Assembly: GCA_029907355.1 (NCBI GenBank) | Contig: JARYLZ010000007.1 | Span: 6,275-70,274 of the forward strand | DNA: 64,000 nt | Direction: 5' to 3' | From: Bacteroidota bacterium | GTDB taxonomy: Bacteria; Bacteroidota; Ignavibacteria; SZUA-365 | Part shown: piece after piece, positions 47,118 through 63,678 of the stretch | Numbering within the stretch: position 1 is the first letter of the stretch | Layout: every line of letters starts with the position of its first letter | Position numbers and translations under genes: made by a program | The notes under the pieces: model-generated | Told to the model about the DNA's origin: nothing | What the model saw: the letters and a program-made list of their open reading frames with translations, nothing else | Databases searched by the model: none

Positions 47118-47204
47118 GGAGAGATGCAGGAGTGGTTGATCTGGCACGCCTGGAGAGCGTGTGTACGGGAAACCGTACCGTGGGTTCGAATCCCACTCTC
47201 TCCG
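47118..47204 (+). tRNA. tRNA-Ser (anticodon GGA)
   Basis: Hand-folded. Acceptor GGAGAGA/TCTCTCC (7 bp), D-arm CAGG-AGTGGTTGA-TCTG, anticodon arm CACGC-CTGGAGA-GCGTG (GGA), a long variable arm TACGG-GAAA-CCGTA, T-arm GTGGG-TTCGAAT-CCCAC and discriminator G. The anticodon arm is near-identical to E. coli serX. Confidence 0.8.
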
Positions 47205-47443
47205 CAGGAAAGACAGGCCGATCCGGTAGTGGGTGGGGGGTACTTTTAACGGGGAACGTACGATTCCGCGAAGTGTGCATGATGATGCTTCGCCGAATAT
47301 GCGGACTGCGGGTTTGCCCTTGGCAGCTCGTTCCCTCTCTCCTTATCTTCGATTTGGCATAAACACGGCTTTTTTCTTACTAAACGGCAAGATATTCCGA
47401 TCGCCTTCGAACGGGCAGAACATTCGGAGAACCCTGTGGACCG

Positions 47444-47812
47444 ATGAAACTGCTCCCGAAAACGGTTTTGCTGTTCGTCTTCCTTTGCTTGGCCACAGCA
47501 GGCACCAGCCATGCCCAATTCGTCGGGAACAGGAATTCGAAGAAATTCCACAACGAAGATTGTCGGTATGCCCGCCGGATATCCGAATCCAACCTTGTGA
47601 AATTCGAATCCGCCCGAGAGGCTCTTGCCCAAGGCTACAAACATTGTAAAGTATGCAGGCCGGCAGGGGAAAACTCGACGGCGACGGTCGCCCCCGACAG
47701 CACGGTTTCACGCGAGGATTCCGGAAGATGCCGGGCAATCACGAAACGGGGGACGCAGTGCAAACGGAAAGCTCTCCCGGGAAGCAAGTACTGCTGGCAA
47801 CCCAACAAGTAG
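47444..47812 (+). CDS. Small secreted protein with an Ada-type zinc-binding-like motif
   Basis: Signal peptide MKLLPKTVLLFVFLCLATAGTSHA. The motif KFHNEDCRYARRISESNLVKFESAREALAQGYKHCKVCRP follows the FH-x3-C ... N-x3-F-x-S-x2-EA-x3-GY-x-PC-x2-C-x-P pattern. A second Cys pair lies near the C-terminus. The gene sits in low-GC DNA. Confidence 0.5.
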   Translation: MKLLPKTVLLFVFLCLATAGTSHAQFVGNRNSKKFHNEDCRYARRISESNLVKFESAREALAQGYKHCKVCRPAGENSTATVAPDSTVSREDSGRCRAITKRGTQCKRKALPGSKYCWQPNK

Positions 47813-47827
47813 TTTAAAGTTCGCTCC

Positions 47828-48232
47828 ATGAAAAAGAGATCGATCATCGTTCTCGCGCTCGGTATCTCTTTCCTCGGCTGTGGCAATAGAGAGAAAGAAC
47901 AGGACACCGGTGCGACGAAACACGACACCGCCTCGCACTATTCCATCCCTTCTCGGAACAGGCATGCTATCCCGTACGATTATTCATTTAATGAGAATTT
48001 CCCGGACGGCATATACGAAGCAGAGGTGCAATACAACAACCCGAAAACAAGATATTCCGCTACATATACGCTCGATGTCGAGGTCGCGGACAACGTGGTG
48101 GTGAAAATCTATTTCCCGAACGGCGGGTGGCTGGATGAGGATCATATTATACCGAACGACCTCGATGAAGAAGGCTGGACGGAGATCGAAGGAGAAGAAG
48201 GCAAGACGTATCAGGTACGGATCTCCCGATAA
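47828..48232 (+). CDS. Hypothetical lipoprotein
   Basis: Signal and lipobox (LGISFLGCGN). 134 aa in AT-richer DNA. Confidence 0.5.
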   Translation: MKKRSIIVLALGISFLGCGNREKEQDTGATKHDTASHYSIPSRNRHAIPYDYSFNENFPDGIYEAEVQYNNPKTRYSATYTLDVEVADNVVVKIYFPNGGWLDEDHIIPNDLDEEGWTEIEGEEGKTYQVRISR

Positions 48233-48400
48233 GAGTATACAGGCGGGCTGTTCATCACGAGGATTCGTAACTGGTACAGAATCCGAACCATTTTCTTCGC
48301 TCACGCGAGCCGGGAAATATATCGCAACGGGGTCCAGACGAATAGAGGGGCGCGGCTTTCAGCAAGAGCGCGCCGGCTGTATTCTTCTGTATAATGATGA

Positions 48401-48949
48401 CTAATATGCCGCCTTCTTGTCTCGTTTCCCCCGCGGAACGAGCGGCCGGAACAGGATATGGTTCACCTGCACATGGTACATCGGGAACAAGCGACGCACA
48501 ACGAGTTCGCGATTCACCAGAAAGACGATGAAGAAAAGAACCTGAATTCCGTAGAGAGGGACACCGAGGCCGACAGCGACGCCTTCGGCGTCTCCCCCGT
48601 AGAGGAACGGCCCAATGGAAAGGTTGAGCGGATCGGCAAGAAAGAGGACCAGTGTCAGGTAGCAGAAGAATGTCCTCGTAAACAAAGCACGCAGGATGGA
48701 TAACTTCCCCCCGAACAGCAGGAGCGCGTACCCCGCAAGTATCGTGACGACATTGCCCGCCCCGGCGACCAACGCCCAATGCATACCCGACCGTTCGCCG
48801 ACAGGTGTTCTGTACTTGACCTCGAAGCCTATCGGCCGGATGTTGAATGATTCAAACTCGTTGTACAGTCTTGCCGCCGATGCATGCATGCCTTCATGCA
48901 CTGCGGCGAACGTGATCAATGAAAGGAGAAATGCCGACCACTTCATCAT
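48401..48949 (-). CDS. Putative membrane zinc metalloprotease (HExxH)
   Basis: 182 aa with 4-5 TM helices. The HExxH motif (VHEGMHASAA) follows the first helix, resembling DUF3267/YhfC-like proteases. Confidence 0.5.
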   Translation of the reverse strand: MMKWSAFLLSLITFAAVHEGMHASAARLYNEFESFNIRPIGFEVKYRTPVGERSGMHWALVAGAGNVVTILAGYALLLFGGKLSILRALFTRTFFCYLTLVLFLADPLNLSIGPFLYGGDAEGVAVGLGVPLYGIQVLFFIVFLVNRELVVRRLFPMYHVQVNHILFRPLVPRGKRDKKAAY

Positions 48950-49072
48950 GGGAAAACCCGCAAGATCGATGGCAAGAATATTCTCGTACCGCGGATAGTA
49001 TCCTTTCAGCTTCCGCGTGTTTCACGCAACGACTCGGTCATCGCAGAACATGGTGTCCCTGCCAGGCTGCAT

Positions 49073-51910
49073 TCATGCCCCGGCGTTCGGGTCCTCGATC
49101 CGGACCCTTTCCCTCAATCCGAGGTCGTCCAGTATCTGCTCGATGTCGTTCTTGAAATGTTGCACGCGACTGCTCTCCAGGGTGACCGAGAATTCGATAC
49201 CGATCCTCAGGTCCGATCCGTCCCGCAATTTCGGGAGGATTTTCGTCCCCAGACGGTTCCAGACCTCTGGAGGCACTTCGCCGGTGATGGTCAATCTCCG
49301 GGTGATGGGCGTCGCGCATACGCAGGGCTGTCGTTTGCATGTCGGGCATACGATCGGCTGGGGACACGTGCAAGGATACGTGCCGCATTTCGGGCACGTC
49401 TTCGGCAGCTGTTCGCATCGGCAGGGGATGGTCAGGCATTTCGGGCACACGGTTGCCGGTGGTTTCGCCGCGTCTTTCCATCTCTTCGCTTCGTCCTGCA
49501 AGAGCAGGAATACATCCGCCTCGAACATGATGTCCGCCGGATCGATGGGCTCCTCGAACAGCACACGATCGTACCCGCCACCCGGTTTTCGCCCGTAAGC
49601 GATCCCGAACTCTCCCCTGCCCACGAATTCGACGATTTTGTTTCGAAGGGTCGCGTCGGGGTCCAGAAGGCGCGTGAGCGAACCGTTCAGGAAGCTCTGG
49701 CGCAGTCCGGACAGCGGCCAAGCACCGGATTCACGGAACACAGGCGGCCAGTTCCGTTCAATGTATCCCGATCCGACGGACTCGCTCAAGAGGGCTTGGG
49801 ACTTCAATGCCGTTATGACCCTCCCACAGAGCGTCTCGCTCCCGCTCGAGTGACCCGCGCCGAGGTCGATGGATTTCAGCCCGTCCGCCTCCTTACTATC
49901 CGCGATGACCACGAAACGGTAACCGCCCCAGACCTCGTCTTTTGCGGCTTCCTCCGCATCCGTCACCTTCGATTGAAGTTCCGCTCGGTCGCTTCGGTCG
50001 AAATCCCCGCCGAGTGTTCCCTCGGCCACTTCCTTCGCGACGCGTTTCCATGCCAGCCACAACTCGACTTTGTCGCGGAGAACGCGGCCGGGTTTCTTGA
50101 GACACCACACGAGCGAGCCGGGATAGAGCCTTGGCGACTTGCCCCGCTGACTCGTCCACTCCGCGATCTGGCGGCGCAGATCGCCTGCTCCGGTCCATTC
50201 CGATTCCGGATCGACGATAACCAGCGTGAGACGCGGCGTATCCGGCACGGCTGTTCCATCTTCGGGGAAGGATACCACGGGTACAGTCGCCCCTCGTTCG
50301 AACTCCTTCCGGATGAGCATCCGCATCGCGGGTTTGATTTCGGATTCCTCGTCGAGCGACGCCCGCCGGTCGCTGACGACCTTCTTCAAGGTCGGCTGGT
50401 GGCTGATCTTGAACCCGTCCGAGCCCACCCGCCGAATGAAATACGATTTGTCTTCCAATGCGAAGGCGGCATTATCGATCGAGGTCGTGTCTACCGCCGG
50501 CTCACCCAGGGCAAAACGCAGCTCCGGCAGGTGGGCCACCTTGTCCACCTGCCCGCCGGAAGACTCGAAGAGAATCGTCGTCCCCACCCGGCGGTGGATG
50601 TTCTTGAGCACGCCCGTGGTGTCCGCGTCGAGCGCACGGGCATGCGAATGCGCGCCGGCGATGTCGGAATCGATGGCGGCCACGAGCCGGGATTCGCCGA
50701 GCTGGCCCAACACGACGCTGCGGAACTCCGGCACTTCCAGCGGGGCAGATCCCAGCGTGATGAGCGGCTCGCGCCGCGACTCGGTAAACCCGGTCCGGTA
50801 CGCCCAGGAAATCCACTGCGCGAGCATGGCCAGCGTCCCTCGCGTCTGCTGGTACTGCGAAAGCGCCTGCCATTTTCTCTGGAACACCGAAAGCGTCGCC
50901 GGGTGGAACGGGTAGCATGCCTCGAACCTGTTGCGCAGGAATTCCCTGGCTTTGGTCTCGGTCGTCGCGGTATCTACCGCCGTCCATTCGGGTGGGAGTT
51001 GCGCCCGCCGTTCGAAGCACCAGTCGGCGTAAGCCTTGGCGACGTTCTTCCGTACGCGATCGTTGCCCATGTCCTCGAACAGCCGGCGCCGCACGACCTC
51101 GCTGATCTCCGTCTCATCGTTGGCGATGAGGTCTTTCGCCACACGGCGTACGACCTTGGTGAGCCTTTCCTGCCACTGCATGTCCCAGTCGGTCATCTCG
51201 ACCTGGCTGCGGGGCAGGCTGATGACGGCGGCCCCGTGCGTAACACCCGTTGCTGCCACCGTCAAATTCTGAATGAAAGCGTGGAACTGCTCCGCCATGC
51301 CGCGATGGCGGTTCAGGAAATTCAGCACTTCGTCGAAAAGGAGGAGTACCTGGCCGCCCGCCGCCTGGAAAACGCGAGCCAAAGCCTCTGTACCCGGCGG
51401 CGTGGTCTTGGCCGCCGAGCCCAACTCACGCACCCCCGCCTCTCCGGCCAACTGCCGAGCGATATCGATCCACGGCGTCTCGCGCCCTTCCTGCGGGTCC
51501 CAGGCATTGCCGACGAAGACACCCACTCGCGCCTTGGGTACGGAGGAGAGCCCGGCCTCCTTCAGCAACTCGGGTACACCGTTGTATTCCGCCGCTTTGT
51601 CGCCGCACATGGCAAGGTGGTAGAGAGCCGTCAGCGTGTGCGTCTTTCCGCCGCCGAACTGGGTGATGAGCGTCATGACCGGTGCGGTGTTCTCCGTTTC
51701 ACCGGAGAGACGACGGAGCACCATACTCGTATATTCCCGCAAGGCACGAGTCCAGCACGTACGCTCGAAGAATTGTTTCGGGTCCCGGTAATCCTCGGGC
51801 GCGGTCCCGGCGATGACTTGTTCCAGGTGGATGGCGAACTCGTCCGGGTTGAACGAGCGGCCCTCGCGGACTTCCTTGCGCGGCGTGGAGACTTTGTACC
51901 AAGGATCCAT
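49073..51910 (-). CDS. DUF499-family ATPase (BrxC/PglY-like P-loop NTPase) with a Cys-rich CPxC-repeat C-terminal tail
   Basis: Walker A QFGGGKTHTLTALYHL. The N-terminal region is DUF499-like and the protein is long at about 945 aa. The start is placed at MDPWYKV (51910) because the 15 upstream codons of the track ORF are a translation of the polypurine repeat. The tail is TVCPKCLTIPCRCEQLPKTCPKCGTYPCTCPQPIVCPTCKRQPCVC. Confidence 0.8.
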   Translation of the reverse strand: MDPWYKVSTPRKEVREGRSFNPDEFAIHLEQVIAGTAPEDYRDPKQFFERTCWTRALREYTSMVLRRLSGETENTAPVMTLITQFGGGKTHTLTALYHLAMCGDKAAEYNGVPELLKEAGLSSVPKARVGVFVGNAWDPQEGRETPWIDIARQLAGEAGVRELGSAAKTTPPGTEALARVFQAAGGQVLLLFDEVLNFLNRHRGMAEQFHAFIQNLTVAATGVTHGAAVISLPRSQVEMTDWDMQWQERLTKVVRRVAKDLIANDETEISEVVRRRLFEDMGNDRVRKNVAKAYADWCFERRAQLPPEWTAVDTATTETKAREFLRNRFEACYPFHPATLSVFQRKWQALSQYQQTRGTLAMLAQWISWAYRTGFTESRREPLITLGSAPLEVPEFRSVVLGQLGESRLVAAIDSDIAGAHSHARALDADTTGVLKNIHRRVGTTILFESSGGQVDKVAHLPELRFALGEPAVDTTSIDNAAFALEDKSYFIRRVGSDGFKISHQPTLKKVVSDRRASLDEESEIKPAMRMLIRKEFERGATVPVVSFPEDGTAVPDTPRLTLVIVDPESEWTGAGDLRRQIAEWTSQRGKSPRLYPGSLVWCLKKPGRVLRDKVELWLAWKRVAKEVAEGTLGGDFDRSDRAELQSKVTDAEEAAKDEVWGGYRFVVIADSKEADGLKSIDLGAGHSSGSETLCGRVITALKSQALLSESVGSGYIERNWPPVFRESGAWPLSGLRQSFLNGSLTRLLDPDATLRNKIVEFVGRGEFGIAYGRKPGGGYDRVLFEEPIDPADIMFEADVFLLLQDEAKRWKDAAKPPATVCPKCLTIPCRCEQLPKTCPKCGTYPCTCPQPIVCPTCKRQPCVCATPITRRLTITGEVPPEVWNRLGTKILPKLRDGSDLRIGIEFSVTLESSRVQHFKNDIEQILDDLGLRERVRIEDPNAGA

Positions 51911-51925: not shown

Positions 51926-51960
51926 GGAAGGCAAAAGGAAAAAGGTAAAAGGCAAAAGGG
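51926..51960. repeat. Polypurine repeat copy a (GGAAGGCAAAAGGAAAAAGGTAAAAGGCAAAAGGG), in inverted orientation to copy b
   Basis: I read this copy directly. It lies between the DUF499 start and the four-helix-bundle stop. Its reverse complement nearly matches copy b at 52335-52382. Confidence 0.7.
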
Positions 51961-51962: not shown

Positions 51963-52334
51963 TCATTTTGACTTTCTCTTTTTCGCGTTTACGACGATCG
52001 ATCCGATGATCCGAGACAACTCGTTGGCTTCTCGATTCAGCGAGTCGATCTGATCGGCTTCGCCGAAGCCGGCGGCCCGTAACAATCGAAGCCAGTAGAT
52101 GGTTTCCCGCGCCTCTTTCAGGGCAATCGCATATTTACTGACGAAATCCGCCAAGCTTTGACCGGCCTGGGCTTCCTCGACATTCGAGCCGATGGAGGTT
52201 CCCGACCGAAGCAATTGCTTTCCCAATGCCCGTGAAACATCCGCATACGCTTCTAGCCGCCGACAAAGACGCACGATTTCCACCGCGAAAGCGAAGGTGC
52301 GCTCCTTGATGTCCCGCGGCTTATCATTGTTCAT
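51963..52334 (-). CDS. Four-helix-bundle protein (TIGR02436-like, the family known from 23S rRNA intervening sequences)
   Basis: 123 aa reading MNNDKPRDIKERTFAFAVEIVRLCRRL...ALGKQLLRSGTSIGSNVEEAQAGQS...YAIALKEARETIYWLRLL. This matches the conserved pattern of that family. It is bracketed by inverted polypurine repeats. Confidence 0.75.
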   Translation of the reverse strand: MNNDKPRDIKERTFAFAVEIVRLCRRLEAYADVSRALGKQLLRSGTSIGSNVEEAQAGQSLADFVSKYAIALKEARETIYWLRLLRAAGFGEADQIDSLNREANELSRIIGSIVVNAKKRKSK

Positions 52335-52382
52335 TTCCTTTTCCCTTTTGTTTTTTCCTTTTGCCTTTTTCCTTTTTCCTTA
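52335..52382. repeat. Polypyrimidine repeat copy b (TTTCCTTTTCCCTTTTGTTTTTTCCTTTTGCCTTTTTCCTTTTTCCTTA)
   Basis: It lies between the four-helix-bundle start codon and the DUF1156 stop codon. Copies c (about 52978-53015) and d (about 53094-53127) have the same orientation and sit inside the DUF1156 gene about 108 bp apart. Confidence 0.7.
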
Positions 52383-55352
52383 TCTCGGCACTCCCAGAAG
52401 CATCGCATCCAGCAGGCGCTTCTCTTCGCTCGCTTTCGGGTACAACGCCGAGAGGGCATTTGACAGCCGCAGGAAATCCGGGCCGCGTTCCATCTCGGCT
52501 TTTATGAGGGTCCGGAGTGCGTTGGTATGGCCCCCCGCTTGAAGGAGCATCGCGGCATGGACACGGTCGAGCGTCGTCGGACCATGTCCATCACGGCTAT
52601 TCAGAGAATGCAGAGATTCCTCATCCATAATGATCCTCTTTCCTCTGTGCCCTCTGTGTCTCCGTGGTGATTCTTCCATCTCGGGGAAGAGCACTAGCTG
52701 AAGGTTCTTCTTCGGGTCTTGAACGCTCCAGTCGGCCACAGCGTCCGCGCCATCCTCGCCGAAGAGCTGCCTGGCGCGTTCTGACACGGCCATGAGCCGC
52801 ACCACGCCTTTCTTCGTCTCGATGATGCGGCCCTCCCACTTGGGAAGGTCAATCCCCAGAGGCTGAGCGAAACGGCGCACCACGTCGAAGACAAGACTGA
52901 AACCTTTGGGCTTGCTTTTCGACTCGACGTCCTCGTCATCCTCCTCTTCCACCCAATCCCCGACCTCCTCATCGTTAATTCTTTTACCTTTTTCCTTTTC
53001 CCTTTTTCCTTCCCCATCTGTGACCTGCAGCGTCCACAGAAACAGTGCCGTCAGGCGTGCGTCCTCTTCCAACTCCTGCCCCGCCCCCTCCATTTTTCCT
53101 TTTACCTTTTTCCTTTTTCCTTCCCCCATCACCTGCTCCAGCGCCGTGCGGCCGACGACTTCCCATACTTTCTCCAGGAACTCCGCCAGTTTCACCTCGC
53201 GCCCCTCGGCGGTTTCGACTTTGCGGTAGCGGCTGAAGATTTCCAGCGCCGGGCCGATGCAGGCGAAGACGAGGTCTGCGCCGCGAATGCCCTCGCCCTG
53301 CAGCCGCTCCATCCAATCACCCACGCGCTTGGGAAGTTCTCGCAACACCTCGCCCCAGTCGCCCACCGGCGCATCCTCGGGCCGCGGGCGGCAGACGAGG
53401 TGGACGCTGGTTTCAAGTGCTGCGTAGCCCTGGCCGCGCATGCGCTGTCTGCGTTCGGTGGCGATGGGCCACGAACCGGTTGTGCGCCATCCCGCCTGTA
53501 CCAGCGCCGAGACGAGCGCTTCCCAGCGGTCGGTGTCCTTGTGGGCGAAAACAACCGAGGCCACTCCATCCTCGCGGATAATCCGCTTCATACGGCCAAA
53601 GGCCTCATACATGCGGCTCTCGTACCACTGACGGTCATGCACGCCGCTGTCCTTGACCGCACGGTTTTCTGTAAGTTCGCGGGCTTTTTCGGTCTCCAGG
53701 GCCGTGAAGGCCTGCGGCAGGCGATTCTTCAAGCCCAGCCGGAGCCAGCTGTAGAAAAAGTCTGAAAGGTGCGCGTAGGGAATCTGGTTGGCGTAGGGCG
53801 GGTCGGTGAAGACCAAGTCCACCGATTCTTCCGGCAGGACAGCGTCCAGCACGTTGGCCAGGAGCGGCGACGAGGGTTGGTAGCGGACGGTAGAGAGGTT
53901 CCGAAGCGCGCTCTGGACACTGCGGATGGAGTAGCCCAGGCCCTCGCAGTTCGGGCTCAAGGGATTGCCTTCCACAAAGTCGGCGCGCATGGGAACGCCG
54001 GAACCCTGTATGAAGATGGACGTTACCCCTTCCGAGAGCCAGACGCAAAGAGAGGTGTGGTACTGGCCATTGTCCGAGTAAGCCGCATAGAGGCAGGCGG
54101 CGAGACCGTCGAGCAGGTCTTTCTCCTTGGTCTTCTTGGCCGCTTCCTTGAGCGCGTCCTCGATGACCTCGTGCAGTACCCAGCGTGAGAAGCGTTGACG
54201 CGGGGCCAGGACTTCGACCCAAGTCTTGATTCCGTATGGACCAGGAGGAAATGCCCGCGTGTCGTTTTGCGGAAACCCGGCCATCTCAAACCTGATGTCC
54301 TTAGCTTTCACAAAAGCAGCAGAGAACGCTTTGAGGTCTTTAGGTGTCGGTGCGGAATATTCCTTTCCTCGGCTGTTTGTATTTCGCCACACGACCGCAA
54401 GAAGCATGGCATCATCCGCTCCGCCGCGCTTGTCGCGCAGTTGCGCCTGAACTCGTTCGCGCGGGGTAACCATGTGGCACTTCGGGCAGGTGGCGTTGTT
54501 CCCGGCAACGGTGCCGCGTTCGACCTCCTTGTCGCTGGAAGGCGTGAAGACCTCAATCTTCGGCTCCAACGATCCCTTGGGATATGTGATGCGCAGCGCT
54601 TTCTTGCGGCCCTTGGCCTGCGAAAGCCAGAGGTTACGCACGAGCGGAATGGTTGCCCCGCACCCGGCGGCCTCGCATTTGACGGTTCGCGCCCAGAGAT
54701 AGGCGAGCGGCTTCCGCCTGTACGCATCCGCCGGGTAGTACTCGCCCAGCCGCCTCTCTGCCTCTCTCAACACCCATTGTGACCATTCCTCGAACAGGTC
54801 GGCTAGTTGCGGTCCTTTGCGAGCACACCATTCGAGCGCGATCTTCAAGAGAAGCCACGCGACGGGATTGATGTCGGACGCAGTCACCTCGCAGCCGAGG
54901 CGCTGAGCTTCCAGCGGGATGGAGCCGCCGCCGGAGAACGGGTCCAGGACGTGCGGGACCGCACCGTGCGCGGCCTTCACCAGCTCGCGGGCCATGGAGA
55001 CGTAGCCTGCCACGCGGACGATGTCCCAGTTGGCGATGTCGGCCACGAAGGCCAGAAGCGCCTTTTGAAGGTCGGCGTCCTTCGGACCGACCTTCTTGTT
55101 CTGCTGGAGCGCCTTCCTCGCCGCCGCCTTGAACTCCGCCGGGCAGAGCGGGTCGCACGGGTCGGGGAGAAGCAGCGTCAGGAGAAGCGACCGGCAGGAG
55201 GCCAGCGGACGCCGCGCCCACCACGAGTGGAGAAGCGAGAGGTGGCCGCTGTCCACGCGGGTCTTGCGGTTGTTCTCCTCGACGCAGGCGTCGTTCACAC
55301 GCGACAGCGGAAAGTCCACCTCTGCCAGGCGTTTGCATTCTTTCGGGATCAT
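52380..55352 (-). CDS. DUF1156-family N6-adenine DNA methyltransferase (Zn-ribbon-containing)
   Basis: The N-terminus KRLAEVDFPLSRVN...SGHLSLLHSWWARRPLA is the DUF1156 signature. The SAM/catalytic region shows FSGGGSIPLEA and the DPPY motif (LVFTDPPYANQIPY). Cys pairs fit a Zn ribbon (CEAAGCG, CPKCH). A K/E/G-rich internal duplication is encoded by repeat copies c and d. Confidence 0.85.
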   Translation of the reverse strand: MIPKECKRLAEVDFPLSRVNDACVEENNRKTRVDSGHLSLLHSWWARRPLASCRSLLLTLLLPDPCDPLCPAEFKAAARKALQQNKKVGPKDADLQKALLAFVADIANWDIVRVAGYVSMARELVKAAHGAVPHVLDPFSGGGSIPLEAQRLGCEVTASDINPVAWLLLKIALEWCARKGPQLADLFEEWSQWVLREAERRLGEYYPADAYRRKPLAYLWARTVKCEAAGCGATIPLVRNLWLSQAKGRKKALRITYPKGSLEPKIEVFTPSSDKEVERGTVAGNNATCPKCHMVTPRERVQAQLRDKRGGADDAMLLAVVWRNTNSRGKEYSAPTPKDLKAFSAAFVKAKDIRFEMAGFPQNDTRAFPPGPYGIKTWVEVLAPRQRFSRWVLHEVIEDALKEAAKKTKEKDLLDGLAACLYAAYSDNGQYHTSLCVWLSEGVTSIFIQGSGVPMRADFVEGNPLSPNCEGLGYSIRSVQSALRNLSTVRYQPSSPLLANVLDAVLPEESVDLVFTDPPYANQIPYAHLSDFFYSWLRLGLKNRLPQAFTALETEKARELTENRAVKDSGVHDRQWYESRMYEAFGRMKRIIREDGVASVVFAHKDTDRWEALVSALVQAGWRTTGSWPIATERRQRMRGQGYAALETSVHLVCRPRPEDAPVGDWGEVLRELPKRVGDWMERLQGEGIRGADLVFACIGPALEIFSRYRKVETAEGREVKLAEFLEKVWEVVGRTALEQVMGEGKRKKVKGKMEGAGQELEEDARLTALFLWTLQVTDGEGKREKEKGKRINDEEVGDWVEEEDDEDVESKSKPKGFSLVFDVVRRFAQPLGIDLPKWEGRIIETKKGVVRLMAVSERARQLFGEDGADAVADWSVQDPKKNLQLVLFPEMEESPRRHRGHRGKRIIMDEESLHSLNSRDGHGPTTLDRVHAAMLLQAGGHTNALRTLIKAEMERGPDFLRLSNALSALYPKASEEKRLLDAMLLGVPR

Positions 55353-57322
55353 TGCCCACCTCCTCGCTGTGGTTTGAGGGCAATGATCTTTTCGACGATG
55401 CCCTTCAGGGTCACGCTTATCTTCCCATCAGCCGATGCCTTCTCGACGATACGCTGGAGAACGACGGGGTTCTTCAACGCATCCTTCTTCTTTTGGATGC
55501 CGAGTTGCGTTTGGGCTTCCGAAAGCAACCGGCCAAACAGGTCTTTGCCGATTTCCTCTTCAAGCGTAGTCTCGAGTTTGACCTTGAAACAGGCGTATTT
55601 GTCTTTCACACCGCATGGCCAGTCTTCTTCCGACTCGCCGACAAGCCGCAGCAGCTTGCGGTTGTCTTCAGGAATAGCACCATCTTCACCATTATCGCTG
55701 TCCCAGACGACGTAAACCGGGATGCCGAGTCGCCGGAAAATTACCAGAGGGCGATCCAAGTTGTTCTTTCCGATGCAGGGGATAACCGAGATGCCTTCGC
55801 TGTCGAAATTGTGCCCCATCGACGCGGCTACGCCGAGAATGGCGGCGCGGTCATCCTCGCCTTCGACCAGCACCGCAACATCGGCAAAGAATCCTTCGTT
55901 GAGCCACGGAGTCATCACAGCCTGAAGACGGGGGCGAAGCGTATCGGCGGTGTACTTGGCACCTTGTTTGCCTCCCGCAATCCATATTTCTTCGGCTACT
56001 GCGCCCAGTTCTGCCTTGATAGCCTTTGTCACCCTCGGTTTCCCGGCGACATCATCGAACTTCCGCAAGAGGCGGATTTGCTCGAAGCGGTCGAGTCCGA
56101 CAAAAAGCGGGGAGTGCGTAGAGTAGAGGACCTGCGTCCGCTTCGCCACGCCGGGGATCGTGCCTTGCGACAGTTTCAGAAGGACGGACGCCATGTGCCG
56201 CTGGCGGCTCGGGTGTTGGTAGAGTTCCGGCTCCTCGATGGCAAGAACCAGGCTGGGGAGCTGCGGCTCACCCTGTTCGGGAATCTCCGCCTCCGACGCA
56301 AAGCCCTCTTCGGTTGCGGACTCAACGCCCTTGGCCGCAACGAGATGCTGCAACATGGTCAGGATGAAGGCGCGCTGGAGACCGTGGCCCGTCCGCTGGA
56401 CCGAGGACTTGTATCCGTCTTCGTGAAGTTTGACCTCGGCCTTCGGCAAGGGAAAATCAATGTCAACGAGTTTGGCCCATTCCATCGAGACGTTCGCTTC
56501 GGGGGCATATTGTCGTAGGGTTTCGGATAGCTGCGTCTGAAGCCCGGAAAGCTCCGTGAGTCTTGCGGGGTCCATGATTTCGCGGTACTTCTTCTGCGTC
56601 TCGTCCTTCAGCGTCACGAATTCCTTCCGGTTGGTGAGTGCGCGCCGAACCACGAGGTCCATGATTTCCGTGACGCATGATCCCTTGCCTTCGGTGGCGT
56701 CATCCGACGCATCCCGGACGGCGGGGATGTGGATGAAGCGCGTGTGACGGCCGAGGTAGCCGTTACCGACTTCCGTGAATCCGAAAAATTGCCCATCGTC
56801 GCGCATGCGGGAACATGAACCTGGGTTGGCGGCCTCCCACTTTCTCAGTTCTTCCTCGACTTGATCCGCGTTCCGAACTGTAGGAAGTGAAGAGTAATTT
56901 GGCTTGCTCCTGATTTCGTTGTATTTGTTCCTGATCTCCGATTTTCCACCTGCGTTGCGAACTTCGGCAAATTCCGGATTCTGGAGTTTCATGCCATGGT
57001 AGGTTCCCGACTTCTTGGCCGAGAAAGAGAAGACTCTGGCAACGGTGAGGTCGTTGCCATCGAGATACGGCGCAAACAGGGCGTTCTCCTCGGTGCCGAG
57101 GTCGGTGAACGTCAAGGCGATTTCGATTTCCCTACTTGTGTCCTCCGCGTAGAAATCCTCAGCCGAGACAGCCGCCTTCGGGTCGTAGAACAACTCCATC
57201 GCCCGAAGGAAGGATGACTTGCCGGTGCCGTTGCGCCCGACAAGGACCGTCAGGTTGTCGCAATCAATCCGCTCGTCGAGAACCGAACGGAAGTTTTTAA
57301 CATGGATGGCCTTGACAATCAT
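55349..57322 (-). CDS. OLD-family nuclease: N-terminal ABC-type ATPase plus C-terminal Toprim domain
   Basis: Walker A VLVGRNGTGKSSFLRA, Walker B LAIEEPELYQHP and a Toprim block VLVEGEDDRAAILGVA...VIPCIGKNNL. Its stop overlaps the DUF1156 start by 4 nt. Confidence 0.8.
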   Translation of the reverse strand: MIVKAIHVKNFRSVLDERIDCDNLTVLVGRNGTGKSSFLRAMELFYDPKAAVSAEDFYAEDTSREIEIALTFTDLGTEENALFAPYLDGNDLTVARVFSFSAKKSGTYHGMKLQNPEFAEVRNAGGKSEIRNKYNEIRSKPNYSSLPTVRNADQVEEELRKWEAANPGSCSRMRDDGQFFGFTEVGNGYLGRHTRFIHIPAVRDASDDATEGKGSCVTEIMDLVVRRALTNRKEFVTLKDETQKKYREIMDPARLTELSGLQTQLSETLRQYAPEANVSMEWAKLVDIDFPLPKAEVKLHEDGYKSSVQRTGHGLQRAFILTMLQHLVAAKGVESATEEGFASEAEIPEQGEPQLPSLVLAIEEPELYQHPSRQRHMASVLLKLSQGTIPGVAKRTQVLYSTHSPLFVGLDRFEQIRLLRKFDDVAGKPRVTKAIKAELGAVAEEIWIAGGKQGAKYTADTLRPRLQAVMTPWLNEGFFADVAVLVEGEDDRAAILGVAASMGHNFDSEGISVIPCIGKNNLDRPLVIFRRLGIPVYVVWDSDNGEDGAIPEDNRKLLRLVGESEEDWPCGVKDKYACFKVKLETTLEEEIGKDLFGRLLSEAQTQLGIQKKKDALKNPVVLQRIVEKASADGKISVTLKGIVEKIIALKPQRGGGQ

Positions 57323-57327: not shown

Positions 57328-57540
57328 TTACCTCACCTGCCTGTTGGAATACCGCCCCTTGATGTGGTTGTGAAAATACGACCCCTTTGATGCGGCTCGC
57401 ATGAAGTCCTGATAAACGGTCTCTGGTACACCAGAGTACTGGTAAACGCCTCCGCTATTGAACTCCACCTCCAGCGTCCTCGACGCTGGGTCATAGCCCA
57501 CGGAACGGATATTGCTTGAGCGGACTGGTCTTCTGTTCAT
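57328..57540 (-). CDS. KTSC-domain protein
   Basis: 70 aa reading [57 protein letters not shown], which matches the KTSC domain pattern. Its start overlaps the RmuC stop by 4 nt. Confidence 0.7.
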
Positions 57541-58964
57541 GCTTGGTTGTCCTCCTTCACCTCCGGCGCGGAGATCGCCCGGGGCGTCGTCTCAACAGGT
57601 GATAGAGGCGGTATCTCGTTGCCGGTCGCGGCCCCCAAGTCCTTGAACTTGCGGGCGGCGGGCAGAACCCGGGCTTCCATCGAGCCGACGGCGCTGTTGT
57701 AGGCCGCGTTGGCCTTCTCCAGACCTTTGCCGATTGCAGCAAGGTGCTCAGCCATGGTTCTCATGCGTTCGTAGAGATCCTTGCCAAGGTTACTAATTTC
57801 CTGGGCATTCTTCGCGATTTGTTCTTGTCGCCATCCATAAGCCACGGCTCGCAGAAGCGCGATAAGCGTAGTGGGGGTCGCCAGAACTACGCGCTGCGCC
57901 AGACCGTCCTCAATGAGTGAGTGGTCGGCGTCCACCGCCGCGCCGAAGAACGACTCGCCGGGAATGAACATGACCACGAACTCGGGGGCCTTGGGAAACT
58001 GGCTCCAGTACGCCTTCGAGGCAAGGGTGTTCATGTGACTGCGAACTTGCGCTGCGTGCCGCGCCATGGCCGCATTGCGCACGTCTTCGGACTCGGCGGC
58101 GACGGCGTCAAGGTACGCCTCCAGCGAAACCTTCGCATCCACGACGATCTCCCGTTCGGCTGGCAGCCGTATGAGCAGGTCCGGACGCAGTCGCCCTTCC
58201 TCGGTGCCGACGGTCACCTGCTCGGCGAAATCGCAATGTTCGGACATCCCCGCCAATTCCACCACGCGACGCAGGGTCATCTCGCCCCAGCGGCCGCGTA
58301 CCTGCGGCTTGCGCAGGGCCGTGACGAGATTCGCGGTCTCTCTCTGCAACTGCTGCTGGCTCGTAGACAGGAGTCTCAAGTGCTCTGTCAGGCCGGAATA
58401 GGCTTCCTGGCGGTTTTTCTCAATCGTGCGGACGTATTCCTCGAACTTGGCAATGGACTCCGCCAGCGGCTTGACCATACCTTGAATGGCTTCCTGACGT
58501 TTGCCGAGATCGCCCCTGGCATCCGTCAGCACTTTGTCGAGCGTTTCCTGCGCCAGTTTCAGGAACGCGGTCGTGCTGGTGTTGAGCGTGTCTCCGGCAA
58601 GAGCCTTGAAGGTGTCCGTGAGCTTGGCCTTGGCCTCCTCCAAGAGCTTCTTCTCTTCCTGAAGCCGCTGGACGGTCTCCGCCAACTGAGTTTCGGCCTT
58701 CACCCTCGCGCTCGTCTCAGCAGCCAGTTGATCCCTGACCTTTGTGAAGTCCTCGGAGGCTTTCTGATTCTGCGAACGCAGTTCGGCAATAGTCCCTTCC
58801 AGCCCTGAGGCGCGCCCCTCGGCGGTATTCGCCCGGCGCTCGGATTCCTCCAACTTGGCGGTCATGAGCCTTGTGGCACGAGCGGTTGCAAGTAGCCAGG
58901 CCACAAGGCCGCCAATCAGCGCACCGGCCAAAACATACAATAGATAAATCATCGCAGCATTCAT
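57537..58964 (-). CDS. rmuC: DNA recombination protein RmuC
   Basis: From [19 protein letters not shown]: an N-terminal TM anchor, a long coiled-coil, and a C-terminal RmuC nuclease-like region ([18 protein letters not shown]...[11 protein letters not shown]...[15 protein letters not shown]). The track ORF extends 119 codons upstream through the YhcG gene and is ignored. Confidence 0.8.
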
Positions 58965-60169
58965 TCTCCGCCTCCTCCGCGTCTCTGCCGTACAATCATC
59001 CGCCGTTCCAGCGCCGCCCGCGTCCGTTCGATCTCGGCCGCCAATTCCTTCTCGTCCGGCAAGGCGGTTTTGTATTCCGCCGCCAGCACTTTGTTGGGGA
59101 GCCGGTCGAGGGCGTAGCGCACCACGGCCTCGTCCTTCTGGGCGCAGAGGATCAAGCCGACGGGCGGGTTCTCGCCGTCGCGGGTCCAGTGTTCCTGGGC
59201 ATAATTGAGATAGAGATGCATCTGGCCCGCGTCGGCATGGGTGAACTTGCCGATTTTGAGTTCGACAATGACCAGGCACTGCAACCGGCGATGGAAGAAG
59301 ACGAGGTCCACACGATACCACTCATCGCCGATGCGCAGGCGTTTCTGGCGGCCGGCAAAGCAGAAGTCGCCGCCGAGTTCCAGAAGGAAGGTCTCCAGGT
59401 GCCGGATCAGTGCTTCTTCGAGGTCGGACTCGGAGTACTCGTCCTTGAGGCCGAGGAACTCCAGCACATAGGGGTCCTTAATCTCCTCCTCGGGAGTGAT
59501 GCGGTCTTCCGGGAGGGCTTTCTGCCCTTTGGCGAGCATGGCGGCTTTATTGTGAGAGAGCGCGGTCCGTTCGTAGAATTGGGAGTTGATCTGCCGGTCG
59601 AGTTGCCGGACCGACCAGCCGCCCCGCAGGGCTTCCGTTTCGTAGAACCGGCGGGCGTTTTCGTTTTTGACCGCCAGCAGGCGGACGTACGCCGACCACG
59701 GGAGGGGGAAGTGAAAGGAGACGTTCTTCAGGAACTGTTCGATGGCGCCGTGCCCGGTTTCTCTTGATGGTGCCGAAAGAATCGGAAGGCTGGATTCTGC
59801 AGACGGCGTCTGCAGAATCTTAGGTTTGTCGGATTCCGCAGACGGTGTCTGCAGATTTGGCCATGCCAGGTAGAATGCCCTCATTTGCCACACATTGCGC
59901 ACGGAAAATCCTTTGCCATAGCGGGCGGACAAATCGGCCGCCAGACGCTCGATCAATTTCTCGCCGTACTCCGCCCGAACCCCTCCCTTCTGCTCGCTTT
60001 CGACGATCCGCCTGCCGATCAGCCAATAGGCAGCCGTCATGACGGAATTCACCGAGCGTGCCGCTGTTCTTCTCGCCGCAACGATAACCTCGGAAACATC
60101 GCCGAGAATCGCGCCATACGCCGAGTCGGCAACGACTGCAGGTGGAGTTCCGGGCGACTTGGGCCTCAC
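58961..60169 (-). CDS. YhcG/DUF1016-family nuclease with the PD-(D/E)xK restriction-endonuclease fold
   Basis: 402 aa. The N-terminal DUF1016-like helical region is followed by a C-terminal nuclease core ([45 protein letters not shown]). Its stop overlaps the rmuC start and its start overlaps the helicase stop, 4 nt each. Confidence 0.75.
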
Positions 60170-63100
60170 TTTTCTTCCTCCTCCGTGTTCGCTGTGCCTC
60201 TGCGGTGAACATCATATCCCGGCGAATCTTCCCGCACCTGCATGGGTCGCGTCATGGCGTCCACTTCCAGCCAATAGTGTTGGACCTTCTTGACCTCATG
60301 CCACGGGAAGCGCGCCGGATCGCGGATGGGCTCCTGGAGCGTGGGCTTGCCAGCGCAGTTCGTGACGATGTAGAGCCAGTAGCAGTCGCGCCGGTCCTCG
60401 GCGACGCGGCGCTCGTTGGGCGTGAGGAGGATCGTCCCGGTCGGATCGGCCAATCCTTTGACCTCGATGAGCCGCAGTTCGCCGGAATTGAGGTCGAGGC
60501 TGGTGATATCGTAGCCGAGGTTCTTCTCGTGGACGTCGTAAACCTGGCGTCCTTTGGAACGCTCGTACTCCATGACGACGCGCATGGCGGCGGCTTCCGT
60601 TTCGGCGCTGGGCTGGAGGTGGCGCACTTCGGGCAAACGGCGATCCGGGTGCGGCAGGACGAGGACACTGGCGATGCGCTCGACGGCCTGGAGCGTGAGC
60701 GACTGCTGCTGCCGGAGTTCCTTGCGGCGGCGGTCGCGCCGCGTCCGGAGTTCGTCGTGACGGTTCACGGCCTGGGCGAGTCGTCCTTCGGCCCCAGGCT
60801 CCTTCCGGTCGATGGCCTCCTGGGCCTTTCCGATTTCCTCGTCCGCCCGCTGGATGAGTTCCGTGAGCGACCATTCCACATGCTGCTCGATGCGTTGCAC
60901 TTCGGCGGTCCGTTCCTTGCGGACCTCTTCCAGGAACGGCCGGAAGGCGTTTTCCTGAAGCCAAGCGAGGGCTTCCGGCTCGAAGGCGACCGGCGGCAAA
61001 GGATCGGGGGAAGCAGCGGGGATGAGATCCGCCAGGATCGTTTCACCACAGAGACGCAGAGAGCACCGAGGACCATTCGTGTTTCCCTCTTTGTTCTCGC
61101 TGTCTCCGTGACGGGTCTTCAAATCCACAGCGAAGAGACGTTCACGGACCACCTGTCCCAACCCGTCCACCACGCGGGCGCGGTAGAAATCGATGCGTGA
61201 CGGCTCTTCGTGTTGGAGGGAGTAGAAGCAGGCACCTTTGCCGAGGGCCTCGGCGGCCATGGCGCACGTGTGCCGGCGGACGGCTTCGAAGAGGGGATGG
61301 CCGGGCGTGACCCACTCGAGATTGTTCTTTTCAGCCGTGTCGCGGTCTGTCGAGCAGGGGGGATAGCGTGGAGCCAGCGGGGGGAGCTTCCAATCCGCCG
61401 CCCGTTCGTACTCCTTCAGGAACGAGGGCGTTCGGCCGGGTTCGAAAGTGTGAGGGAGATGCGGAACGTCCTTGATATCGAGGTCTGCATAGGAGGCGGC
61501 CTCGCGGATGAAGCGGGCGACGGTTTCCGGCACGACGCGGCGTTCCTGGGCGCGAGCCCGTCGCTCGATGAGCATCTCCAGATTGAGTTTCTTGGACGCC
61601 AAGCCCTCCAAAGCGTTCCGGCAGATGTCACGGAATCGGCCCTCGTCGACGTTCTTGAGCAGGCGTTCCTCGAGGTCGGCATCGCCGAGTTTCCCGGCGT
61701 AGTAGTCCCGCAGGATGCGCTCCACGTGGGCCGCAGGCAGGATTTCGCCGACGACGTTGAAGACGGCGTCGTCGTCCAGCGCGTCGCGGATTTCCTGGAG
61801 TTTCTCCAGCAACCGCTGCAGCACACTGCCCTCGATGGTGTTCGTGGCCACGAAGTTGAAGATCAGACAGTCCTTCCGCTGGCCGTAGCGATGGATGCGG
61901 CCCATGCGCTGTTCGAGGCGGTTGGGATTCCAGGGGATGTCGTAGTTGAACAGGATGTTGCAAACCTGGAGGTTGATGCCTTCGCCCGCCGCCTCGGTGG
62001 CCACGAGAATCTGGATTGCGCCCTCGCGGAATTGCTGCTCCGAGTAGAGCCGCGTGCCCGGCTCGTCGCGGGAACCGGGTTTCATGCCGCCGTGGATGCA
62101 GCCGACGCGGAATCCCCAACCCTTCAGCTTCCCGACGAGGTAGTCGAGCGTGTCCTTGAATTCGGTGAAAATGAGCAGACGCTTGTCCGGCTGGTCGAAG
62201 AAGCCTTCTCCGTGGAGGAGGTCCTTGAGTTTCGACAACTTCGCTTCGCAGTCGCCGTTTTCCACGGCCTGAGCCAGGTCTGCCAGTCGGCGGAGTTCGG
62301 AAATCTCCTCCCGCACCTGGTCGGCGTTCCTGGCCAGCGTGATGGCTTCGAGCAATTCCTCCATGCGCTCGCGCTCGCTCTCTTCCATTTCCTCGATCTC
62401 TTCCGGGTCCGGCAGATCGGGCAGATCGAGGCTGACGAGTTCCTGAGCCTTCTTCAGACCTTCCTCCAGCCGGCGGGCGCGTTTCTCGAGGCTGTGACGC
62501 ATGGCATACGTGCTGGAAGCCAGCCTGCGTTGGTAGAGGGACATCAGGAAACCGACCGCACGGGCACGGGGATCGTCGCCCTGGGCGGCGGCCTTGGCGC
62601 TCTGACGCTTCACGAATCGCGTAACCTCCCGGTAGAGCTCGAATTCCGCGCCATCGAGTTGGAAATCCACGGTGTGGGGGATACGCTTCGTGAAGATCTT
62701 CTCGGTGACCCAGGTGCCATCCGGCCGCCGCTCCGGGAAGTAGACCATCGCTTCCTTGGTGCGGCGGAGATAGAACGGTGCGCGACGACGCTCCATCGCC
62801 TCGCGGATCGACCGCACGTCCGCATAGGCGTCCGGTTCGAGGAGTTGAAGGAACAGGGAGAAGTTCTCCGGGTCGCCCTTGTGCGGCGTCGCCGTGAGCA
62901 TCAAGATGTGGTCCGATGTATCCCTCAGGAGCTCGCCGAGGGCGTAGCGGGCGGTCTTGCGGGCCGGAGGCGTCCAGGACATGCGGTGCGCCTCGTCCAC
63001 GATGACGAGGTCCCAGTGGACCTGCCTCAAGCCGGGGAGGATCTCCGTCCGCTTTGCGAGGTCCAGCGACGTAATGACCTTATTCCGCTCCAGCCACTGG

Positions 63101-63678
63101 TTGACGCCGAACTGCTCGCGAATATCGCCGCCCTTGAGGATCACGAACGTCTCGTCGAACTTTTCCTTGAGTTCGCGCTGCCATTGGAAGGAGAGGTTGG
63201 CCGGACAGACGATGAGAATGCGCTCAGCGAGACCGCGCAGTTGAAGTTCCCGAATCAAGAGGCCGGCCATGATCGTCTTGCCGGCTCCGGCGTCATCGGC
63301 GAGAAGAAACCGGACCCGTGCAGCCTTGAGGAGGTAATCGTAGACGGCTTCGAGCTGGTGCGGTAAAGGGTCGACACGTGATATGGAAAGGCCGAAGTAC
63401 GGGTCGAACTCCCAGGCGATGCCGAGGGTGTATGCCTGGAGGCCCAAGCGCAAGAGACGCCCATCTCCGTCGTAACGGAAGCCGACGTCGAGAATGGTGA
63501 GGGCGGCAAAGTCCTGAGCGGTCAACGTCACCTTGCGGAATCGTTCGCTCTGCGTACCGACCAGACCAACGACCCAGGTTCCGTTTCCGTTATCGTGCAC
63601 CGTCTCCACGCGCATCGGCTCGTTGAAGATCGGGCCGGTGAGCACTTGGCCTTCGACCGGGAAATGCCGTTCACTCAT
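60166..63678 (-). CDS. SNF2-family DEAH-box helicase fused to a C-terminal DUF3883 (restriction-endonuclease-like) domain
   Basis: 1170 aa. Motif I LADDAGAGKT, motif II VIVDEAHRM, motif III MLTATPHKGD and motif VI QRMGRIHRYGQ are present. The C-terminal block GYDITSLDLNSGELRLIEVKGLADPTGTILLTPNERRVAEDRRDCYWLYIV is DUF3883-like. Confidence 0.85.
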   Translation of the reverse strand: MSERHFPVEGQVLTGPIFNEPMRVETVHDNGNGTWVVGLVGTQSERFRKVTLTAQDFAALTILDVGFRYDGDGRLLRLGLQAYTLGIAWEFDPYFGLSISRVDPLPHQLEAVYDYLLKAARVRFLLADDAGAGKTIMAGLLIRELQLRGLAERILIVCPANLSFQWQRELKEKFDETFVILKGGDIREQFGVNQWLERNKVITSLDLAKRTEILPGLRQVHWDLVIVDEAHRMSWTPPARKTARYALGELLRDTSDHILMLTATPHKGDPENFSLFLQLLEPDAYADVRSIREAMERRRAPFYLRRTKEAMVYFPERRPDGTWVTEKIFTKRIPHTVDFQLDGAEFELYREVTRFVKRQSAKAAAQGDDPRARAVGFLMSLYQRRLASSTYAMRHSLEKRARRLEEGLKKAQELVSLDLPDLPDPEEIEEMEESERERMEELLEAITLARNADQVREEISELRRLADLAQAVENGDCEAKLSKLKDLLHGEGFFDQPDKRLLIFTEFKDTLDYLVGKLKGWGFRVGCIHGGMKPGSRDEPGTRLYSEQQFREGAIQILVATEAAGEGINLQVCNILFNYDIPWNPNRLEQRMGRIHRYGQRKDCLIFNFVATNTIEGSVLQRLLEKLQEIRDALDDDAVFNVVGEILPAAHVERILRDYYAGKLGDADLEERLLKNVDEGRFRDICRNALEGLASKKLNLEMLIERRARAQERRVVPETVARFIREAASYADLDIKDVPHLPHTFEPGRTPSFLKEYERAADWKLPPLAPRYPPCSTDRDTAEKNNLEWVTPGHPLFEAVRRHTCAMAAEALGKGACFYSLQHEEPSRIDFYRARVVDGLGQVVRERLFAVDLKTRHGDSENKEGNTNGPRCSLRLCGETILADLIPAASPDPLPPVAFEPEALAWLQENAFRPFLEEVRKERTAEVQRIEQHVEWSLTELIQRADEEIGKAQEAIDRKEPGAEGRLAQAVNRHDELRTRRDRRRKELRQQQSLTLQAVERIASVLVLPHPDRRLPEVRHLQPSAETEAAAMRVVMEYERSKGRQVYDVHEKNLGYDITSLDLNSGELRLIEVKGLADPTGTILLTPNERRVAEDRRDCYWLYIVTNCAGKPTLQEPIRDPARFPWHEVKKVQHYWLEVDAMTRPMQVREDSPGYDVHRRGTANTEEEEK

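Follow-up and report, generated by a model that had tools for sequence, protein, structure and literature searches.

Three genes found at positions 57,328-60,169 of a 64,000-nucleotide stretch of DNA from a Bacteroidota bacterium (Ignavibacteria, SZUA-365; assembly GCA_029907355.1, contig JARYLZ010000007.1, positions 6,275 to 70,274; this whole stretch is hereafter called the window) encode a YhcG/DUF1016 nuclease, an RmuC-family nuclease and a small KTSC-domain protein. The block is probably part of a stack of accessory defence genes, separately acquired, that fills the cargo slot of an Hma anti-phage operon, located between its hmaA and hmaB genes. Its likely units are YhcG alone, RmuC (possibly with an adjoining ATPase) and KTSC together with the OLD-family nuclease gene that follows it, that is, three units made of four genes, because YhcG, RmuC and KTSC assort independently in related Hma operons and KTSC stays with OLD. 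The initial annotation of this region had placed the three genes between an SNF2 helicase gene and the OLD gene, inside a defence operon and with overlapping start and stop codons, and in all of this it was right: Pfam confirmed the domains, Pfam and PADLOC identified the operon as Hma, and overlaps of 4 bp can be read directly from the sequence. It had also presented the genes as a triad that might form a coherent nuclease sub-module, a grouping that has to be given up in view of their independent assortment, and of the fact that KTSC has its constant partner in OLD, a gene beyond the limits of the block.

The three open reading frames (ORFs) are intact and lie on the minus strand, being transcribed in the order YhcG (60,169..58,961; 402 aa; Pfam and PADLOC), RmuC (58,964..57,537; 475 aa; Pfam RmuC) and KTSC (57,540..57,328; 70 aa; Pfam KTSC), with the gene of the SNF2 and NOV_C helicase-nuclease HmaA upstream and that of the OLD nuclease downstream. 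The motif GTGA (60,169-60,166) is common to the HmaA stop and the YhcG start, ATGA (58,964-58,961) to the YhcG stop and the RmuC start, and a second ATGA (57,540-57,537) to the RmuC stop and the KTSC start. After the KTSC stop, a spacer of 5 nt leads to the ATG of OLD at 57,322, and the OLD and HmaB genes again overlap by 4 bp (55,352-55,349). In base composition, the block (GC 0.58-0.61) does not stand out from the operon or the genome. A sequence scan found no sigma-70-like promoter on the coding strand within the operon and no convincing terminator, terminator-like matches occurring at the background rate (20 versus 16.9 ± 4.2) and the single one inside the block (60,107-60,088) being weak and contained in the YhcG coding sequence. 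The Bacteroidota promoter consensus TTTG-N17-23-TAnnTTTG had no match in the whole window and is hence uninformative about the block. Since every junction either overlaps or spans 5 bp, the simplest reading is that the whole operon would be co-transcribed from the hmaA promoter. Overlapping junctions are general in related Hma operons, whichever cargo these contain.

The identity of the host operon is given by the genes that flank the block, whose domain matches, like those of the block itself, go well past anything expected by chance. HmaA (63,678..60,166, minus strand) carries an SNF2 helicase followed by a C-terminal NOV_C/DUF3883 PD-(D/E)XK nuclease (Pfam SNF2-rel_dom 6.4e-18, Helicase_C 2e-24 and NOV_C 1.8e-22; PADLOC HmaA 8.4e-175). 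HmaB (55,352..52,380, minus strand) is a DUF1156 N6-adenine methyltransferase (Pfam DUF1156 2.5e-14 and MethyltransfD12; PADLOC HmaB 1.1e-88), and HmaC (approximately 51,910..49,073, minus strand) a DUF499 ATPase (Pfam DUF499 1.1e-12; PADLOC HmaC 1.3e-96) that likely starts at the ATG at 51,910, the mechanical ORF beginning at a TTG at 51,955. Because these genes match HmaA, HmaB and HmaC, with the domains of all three found by Pfam and PADLOC in one minus-strand operon, the operon can be classed by its domain content as an Hma system, alias the Type-1 DUF499-centred BREX-related (BR) system. Payne 2021 is reportedly one of the sources for the Hma system. The alternative name comes from a 2026 survey, which treats the family as restriction-modification (RM)-like (PMC12839542), and the HmaA of Halomonas was shown by experiment to be an anti-phage helicase-nickase (PMC11232893).

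HmaA is the core effector of the Hma system and also the left border of the cargo slot, the right border being HmaB. In an alignment of six sequences, D1057, E1072 and K1074 of its nuclease never vary. The core nuclease being intact, the cargo nucleases do not, therefore, replace a dead one, and the substitution of RmuC for HmaA in this role, considered as a candidate, was ruled out on the same grounds. A helix-turn-helix (HTH) regulator, which is present upstream of HmaA in relatives, could not be detected in the 322 bp left in the window. HmaA itself shows protein identities of 72-84% over more than 10 phyla, with 563 relatives detected (in Nitrospirota, Bacillota, Planctomycetota, Acidobacteriota, Chloroflexota, Verrucomicrobiota, Pseudomonadota and others). 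Such a level of conservation is unusual among defence genes and suggests that this Hma clade has been spreading recently and rampantly by horizontal transfer.

The evidence that carries the proposed reading comes from the comparison of about 180 related loci, annotated with our own ORF calls and with blastp against a small reference set. For the HmaA-anchored sample, one genome per species was scanned with an HmaA alignment and the best 80 of the 563 relatives, which are 72-83% identical and belong to many phyla, were annotated, both HmaA and HmaB being visible in about 50 of these best 80 loci. In these approximately 50 loci, the gap between HmaA and HmaB ranges from a 4-bp overlap (L062, L084 and L102) to 6.2 kb, and HmaA abuts HmaB directly in four of them (the same three and L081). 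RmuC is present in the slot in only four loci (L033, L051, L060 and L088). YhcG is the sole blast-annotated slot gene in three (L045, L083 and L091) and stands beside other cargo, without RmuC, in another three (L056, L061 and L101), KTSC-OLD being likewise found without RmuC in two (L034 and L050) and the ATPase AAA_13 in three (L056, L069 and L079). The remaining cargo of the slot includes Fic, SIR2_2 with HerA, AAA_15 with UvrD (Gabija-like), UvrD, AAA_21 pairs, PHP-ABC ATPases, DUF3644, GmrSD_N with Schlafen, AIPR, Abi_2 (AbiD) and Schlafen-like/HATPase_c_4 (SLFN-HATPase) genes. Most Hma relatives contain none of YhcG, RmuC and KTSC, and the full YhcG-RmuC-KTSC-OLD order is repeated in just one other of the roughly 180 loci (L140).

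The loci anchored on RmuC show the same exchange of neighbours from another angle. The order is HmaA-[Schlafen-like/HATPase_c_4]-RmuC-AAA_13-HmaB in L001-10, HmaA-RmuC-AAA_13-HmaB in L011-14, HmaA-RmuC-KTSC-OLD-HmaB, without YhcG, in L015/16 and L183/4, HmaA-YhcG-RmuC-AAA_13-HmaB, without KTSC or OLD, in L017-19, and HmaA-RmuC-AAA_15-HmaB in L020-22. Pairwise identity among these loci amounts to 75-84% for HmaA, 80-90% for RmuC, 75-80% for HmaC and 52-82% for HmaB. The HmaA/HmaB junction is a hypervariable slot for defence cargo, and the window block represents one particular stack within it. The RmuC-anchored loci had also suggested RmuC as a core component of the Hma clade, a candidate rejected by its presence in only four of about 50 loci of the HmaA-anchored sample. 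The existence of an insertion hotspot in hma was already known, 66.5% of the systems having insertions that include Septu, PARIS, Ppl, AAA_21 pairs and GmrSD (PMC11232893), and PD-(D/E)XK, OLD-ABC, Schlafen and other auxiliary effectors have been described as embedded in BR and BREX loci (PMC12839542).

The initial annotation had reasoned that the block would more likely be an unrelated insertion if homologous operons lacked the triad and if it carried a promoter and a terminator of its own. The first half of this proposition holds, most homologous operons being devoid of the triad, and the second does not, no internal promoter or terminator having been found. Together with the tight junctions, these results therefore suggest co-transcribed inserted cargo instead of an unrelated insertion. 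As for the way in which such cargo is exchanged, short duplicated fragments that match HmaA only at its very C-terminal end (aa ~1083-1170, 50-85% identity) are seen downstream of the cargo in eight loci (L036, L052, L056, L061, L072, L075, L092 and L120). They have the appearance of scars left when cassettes were exchanged through recombination at the 3' end of hmaA; the window's own slot contains no such remnants.

The first cargo unit, YhcG, matches both Pfam families above their cut-offs (YhcG_C 7.2e-59, 198.6 bits; DUF1016_N 5.6e-42, 143.5 bits), as well as the PADLOC defence candidate PDC-S02 (1.3e-139). The initial annotation had proposed comparing the gene neighbourhoods of RmuC and YhcG homologues and checking the nuclease core of YhcG; the comparison places both genes in Hma slots, in varying combinations, and the core is intact, with E264, D288, D/E303, K305 and Q316 kept in 11 of 11 homologues. 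No solved structure related to YhcG was found by sequence. Most loci with RmuC lack YhcG, which would thus be, as far as gene content can indicate, a facultative stand-alone cargo. We know of no experimental defence phenotype for the YhcG/DUF1016 family. DUF1016 genes are, nonetheless, known to sit between the core genes of type I RM systems and to be enriched beside BREX and RM genes (PMC9881135). The protein encoded in the window shares with those the two-domain arrangement of DUF1016_N and YhcG_C PD-(D/E)XK and the location within a methylation-based defence operon, the difference being that the host operon is here Hma.

The second unit, RmuC, is a clear member of its family (PF02646, 6e-107, 357.5 bits versus a cut-off of 26, domain at aa 159-448). 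The mechanical ORF of 594 aa is over-extended, the ATG at 58,964 yielding a protein of 475 aa, in line with the 470-475 aa of all homologues. Its layout is canonical, with an N-terminal transmembrane helix (hydrophobic aa 8-26, KD 2.28), a coiled coil and a PD-(D/E)XK domain, in which E228, E236, P261-D262, D276 and K278 are conserved in at least 98% of 166 sequences. When compared with the equivalog model of the E. coli protein (PRK10361), residues 14-453 aligned with positions 11-437 of the 475-position model at 4.9e-54, the score of 183.7 bits lying below the cut-off of 810, and the protein is thus, on this score, a family member and not the E. coli-type orthologue. In PADLOC, its sole strong match is the RmuC model associated with reverse transcriptases (RT-associated RmuC), the other four matches being weak and located over the coiled coil. 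Neither relatives in viral contigs nor, by sequence, a related solved structure were found. Homologues with 80-92% identity occur in Acidobacteriota, Bipolaricaulota, Desulfobacterota, Nitrospirota, Planctomycetota, Bacillota and others, and for the closest of these every context fetched was the same Hma slot, with differing neighbours.

The recurrent company of RmuC offers the basis for a different partition of the stack, in which RmuC would be the obligate effector of the adjacent ATPase, so that RmuC, KTSC and OLD would form one system, with the ABC ATPase as sensor, KTSC as adaptor and two nucleases, only YhcG being independent. In about 30 of 34 Hma-embedded loci (our own count), RmuC indeed adjoins an ABC/OLD-type ATPase on one side or the other (AAA_13/PDC-S06, AAA_15 or KTSC-OLD, with OLD upstream in L126, L129 and L130), the association having a Fisher p of 0.0105 in the HmaA-anchored sample. 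The conservation of RmuC equals or exceeds that of the core Hma proteins, and OLD-ABC ATPases paired with PD-(D/E)XK nucleases have been reported (PMC12839542). However, the ATPases that follow RmuC belong to three classes sharing only 14-36% identity in global alignments, which is hard to square with a specific protein interface, and each of these classes also occurs without RmuC (L034, L050, L056, L069, L079 and L186). Conversely, RmuC occurs once in Hma without an ATPase (L051) and in many loci without any nearby Hma gene, and the window OLD already has a TOPRIM nuclease of its own. We consider obligate coupling unlikely for these reasons.

An interpretation of the block as separately acquired defence units has its own weak points, and the imperfect linkage between RmuC and the ATPases just described is one of them. 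The adjacency of the two could result from shared ancestry and from the swapping of middle genes between conserved flanks, and not from function. In addition, about 50 of 80 RmuC-anchored metagenome loci (52-85% identity) have no nearby Hma gene, and their heterogeneous neighbours are mostly unrecognisable as defence genes, so that RmuC may have a non-defence role. Finally, the locus counts are approximate and lack phylogenetic correction, and the promoter scans cover Bacteroidota promoters unreliably.

The Hma-free loci also favour the idea that RmuC, as a factor in the control of recombination, and YhcG came into the operon by chance, as ordinary genes of DNA metabolism that take no part in defence. 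This would agree as well with the canonical 475-aa architecture of RmuC and its end-to-end alignment with PRK10361, and with a rough neighbour-joining (NJ) tree in which embedded and non-embedded copies interleave. Against it stand the near-identical RmuC proteins (80-92%) that travel with Hma across unrelated phyla in the same position, a slot that is otherwise filled almost only with recognised defence genes, the match of YhcG to a PADLOC defence candidate, the enrichment of DUF1016 beside RM and BREX genes (PMC9881135) and the anti-phage activity of RmuC-domain proteins (PMC10270631). A housekeeping role for both genes is, therefore, quite improbable, and additional defence genes nested in the operon are the better reading, in line with the initial annotation. 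Least credible of all, and in our opinion barely worth retaining, is a single three-protein unit of YhcG, RmuC and KTSC working within this Hma variant, which could draw on the 4-bp overlaps that would couple the translation of the three genes and on the identical order in L140, but which appears largely refuted already by the comparative data, considering that relatives offer exceptions to each pairing of the genes (RmuC without YhcG in L001-16, L020-22 and L183/4; YhcG without RmuC in the six loci listed above; KTSC-OLD without either in L186, L034, L050, L185 and L204), that HmaA can abut HmaB directly and retains its own intact nuclease, and that overlapping junctions are found irrespective of cargo.

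Two further groups of loci concern the history of the RmuC clade. In L109 (1886-2086), L110 (9414-9611) and L131 (1152-1352), an RmuC gene (81-85%) is followed directly by a fragment of about 66 aa that matches the N-terminus of HmaC (73-78%), the other Hma genes being absent; each may be a remnant of a decayed Hma operon that retained RmuC. In L114, L117 and L119, RmuC (81-83%) lies upstream of a distant SNF2 and NOV_C helicase of about 1285 aa (31-33% to HmaA), and in L119 a Macro-domain gene and a gene distantly similar to HmaB (33%) are found nearby. By this arrangement, the RmuC clade seems also associated with a different BR-like system.

The closest functional precedent for RmuC is ShdA of the Shield system, an RmuC-domain protein with anti-phage activity that degrades DNA and has homologues embedded in DISARM-like operons (PMC10270631). 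The two proteins resemble each other in architecture (N-terminal transmembrane helix and RmuC nuclease domain), and the DISARM-like homologues share in addition the location within a defence operon encoding a methylase and an SNF2 helicase. The window protein, in contrast to ShdA, is a canonical RmuC of full length that has a long coiled coil, and the system differs as well, Shield having the partners ShdB-E and being reported in Pseudomonas only, whereas KTSC and OLD are found downstream of RmuC here.

The third unit joins the KTSC protein to the OLD gene. KTSC matches PF13619 at 8.7e-30 (102.7 bits versus a cut-off of 25), is related to solved KTSC proteins (PDB 7x8c, 2.9e-22; 4rgi, 9.4e-20) and is 100% identical to a protein from a Bacteroidota metagenome-assembled genome (MAG). 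The OLD protein (57,322..55,349, minus strand; PADLOC Old 4.6e-52) combines an ABC ATPase (AAA_15, 4.8e-40, aa 1-408) with a TOPRIM nuclease (OLD-like_TOPRIM, 5.4e-18, aa 478-543), its translation holding a Walker A motif and the acidic TOPRIM motifs; among solved structures, the class 1 protein TsOLD is closest to it (6p74, 1.3e-24). A KTSC gene precedes, by 3-27 bp, every OLD that is at least 62% identical to that of the window, and OLD proteins of 55% identity or less lack KTSC apart from one (L199). Pairs are found in Hma slots without RmuC or YhcG (L186, L034 and L050), outside Hma among housekeeping genes on a 2-Mb contig (L185) and directly downstream of pglZ-brxL of a BREX locus (L204, 6001-8205), that is, within Hma, beside BREX and standing alone. 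It seems likely, from this pattern, that KTSC and OLD form a two-gene unit and that KTSC is an obligate neighbour of the window's OLD lineage.

A search of plasmids and phages with OLD retrieved only distant homologues (26-48%), all without KTSC except L199, where the gene of a 633-aa OLD-like protein (26% identical) shares a GTGA with the KTSC gene of 70 aa that comes right after it (5980-8090). This locus is a viral contig (IMGVR_UViG_2851877514_000001), a putative prophage, and shows the reversed OLD-KTSC order next to a tyrosine recombinase gene. KTSC genes also occur directly after HerA genes, as SIR2_2-HerA-KTSC (L112, 8339-8548) and HerA-KTSC (L168, 2173-2388), alone ahead of hsdR within a type I RM operon that includes RelE and HEPN genes (L200, 6001-6213), and in a defence island (L202). 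The type I RM and BREX examples (L200 and L204) indicate that methylation-based defence loci of several kinds take up KTSC or KTSC-OLD as insertions.

A clue to the possible function of KTSC is provided by the SIR2-HerA system of Paenibacillus, since the window protein matches aa 630-692 of its HerA (PDB 8WIV) at 1.9e-14. In that structure, residues 576-696 constitute a C-terminal arm that wraps around the neighbouring subunit and stabilises the split-spiral form of the hexamer (PMC11472057). The likeness consists in the KTSC domain being part of the arm; the difference is that this domain is there fused to the hexameric ATPase HerA and is here a free 70-aa protein encoded by the side of an OLD ABC ATPase. 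The domain occurs, thus, in three forms (free by OLD, free by HerA and fused to HerA) and appears to accompany two different families of defence NTPases, OLD and HerA. Tentatively, as a possibility that we rate somewhat short of probable, KTSC would be a dedicated small partner subunit, making KTSC-OLD a two-gene defence module that lies outside OLD classes 1-4 and is mobile as a unit; as parts of the same proposal, the KTSC domain may serve oligomeric defence NTPases more generally as an adaptor or clamp and, as a weaker corollary, RmuC may be a transferable effector of DNA degradation that is recruited by any ABC ATPase encoded next to it.

The position of the pair with respect to the current OLD classification deserves to be detailed. 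Like the class 1 members (P2 Old, TsOLD 6P74 and the class 1 OLD of Vibrio cholerae), the window OLD has ABC ATPase and TOPRIM in a single polypeptide, but class 1 is defined by genetic context as a lone gene in the OLD review, where a KTSC partner is unmentioned (PMC10568477), whereas the lineage of the window always has KTSC just upstream. Unlike class 2 (Gabija), it has no adjacent UvrD-like GajB, its neighbours being KTSC and HmaB, and unlike class 4 (PARIS) it has no separate AriB TOPRIM gene, TOPRIM being here fused to the ATPase. Without a UvrD partner, a retron or a split TOPRIM, the protein fits none of the OLD classes 1-4. Neither the searchable literature nor that review (PMC10568477) yielded a description of the KTSC-OLD pair.

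Returning to the stack of separately acquired units as the probable explanation, its operation can be pictured as follows. Extrapolating from the literature, HmaB would methylate self DNA, with HmaC, the DUF499 ATPase, and HmaA, the SNF2 helicase-nickase, restricting foreign DNA, so as to constitute an RM-like core. YhcG would act as a stand-alone PD-(D/E)XK nuclease, similar to those that type I RM loci also harbour. RmuC, a membrane-anchored coiled-coil nuclease, might provide an extra DNA-degrading effector alongside the adjacent ATPase, in a manner comparable to ShdA. By analogy with the C-terminal arm of HerA, KTSC would bind OLD and regulate or assemble its ATPase-TOPRIM nuclease. All units would be read from the single transcript of the operon, and recombination at the 3' end of hmaA, which is conserved, could serve to exchange them, as proposed because of the duplicated HmaA C-terminal remnants in the slots of relatives. 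In this scenario, YhcG, RmuC and KTSC-OLD would be semi-autonomous, their most likely contribution being to back up or complement the anti-phage activity of the core when a phage evades restriction.

Much of this picture is already known, namely the hma insertion hotspot, the embedding of auxiliary nucleases and the presence of RmuC-domain genes in DISARM-like operons, the fresh element being the KTSC-OLD pair. The window locus is a clear example of the published hotspot (PMC11232893; PMC12839542), with which it shares the three core genes with their domains and order, the extra defence genes between hmaA and hmaB, and OLD-type ATPases and PD-(D/E)XK nucleases among the embedded auxiliary effectors. 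The published cargo comprises Septu, PARIS, Ppl, AAA_21 pairs, GmrSD, HEPN, Schlafen, HNH and OLD; the accessible portions of the text and supplements of the two studies (PMC11232893; PMC12839542) name neither RmuC nor DUF1016/YhcG nor KTSC as Hma cargo. The locus differs, moreover, in stacking three cargo units (four genes) at once. It follows for annotation that RmuC and YhcG should not be labelled as recombination or housekeeping proteins when found in an Hma context, and that functional units do not coincide with the apparent triad. Two leads emerge, the KTSC-OLD pair outside the current OLD classification and the recurrent adjacency of RmuC and ABC ATPases. If KTSC does regulate OLD, this would help to explain how single-polypeptide OLD nucleases are restrained and would give the widespread KTSC domain a function.

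The remaining observations concern other parts of the window. Between HmaB and HmaC lies a gene (51,963..52,334, minus strand) for a 123-aa four-helix-bundle protein of the 23S rRNA-intervening-sequence family (TIGR02436, 2.4e-27; Pfam 23S_rRNA_IVP, 6.8e-22). In relatives, the same position is occupied by PDDEXK_3 (134 aa), DUF8426 (about 321 aa), a 423-aa protein of unknown nature, an AAA_21-like ATPase (about 400 aa) or nothing, and the HmaB/HmaC junction looks like a second, smaller variable slot. A T9SS-type protein is encoded elsewhere in the window, which agrees with the Bacteroidota origin of the protein identical to KTSC. Beyond the 3' end of the operon (47,000-49,000), the GC content falls to 0.54 and small ORFs appear, including one at 47,444-47,812 with an Ada-type zinc-binding/DUF6233 match and one at 48,401-48,949 encoding an unannotated protein of 182 aa with hydrophobic stretches, possibly a membrane protein. 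This region may correspond to the boundary of the defence island.

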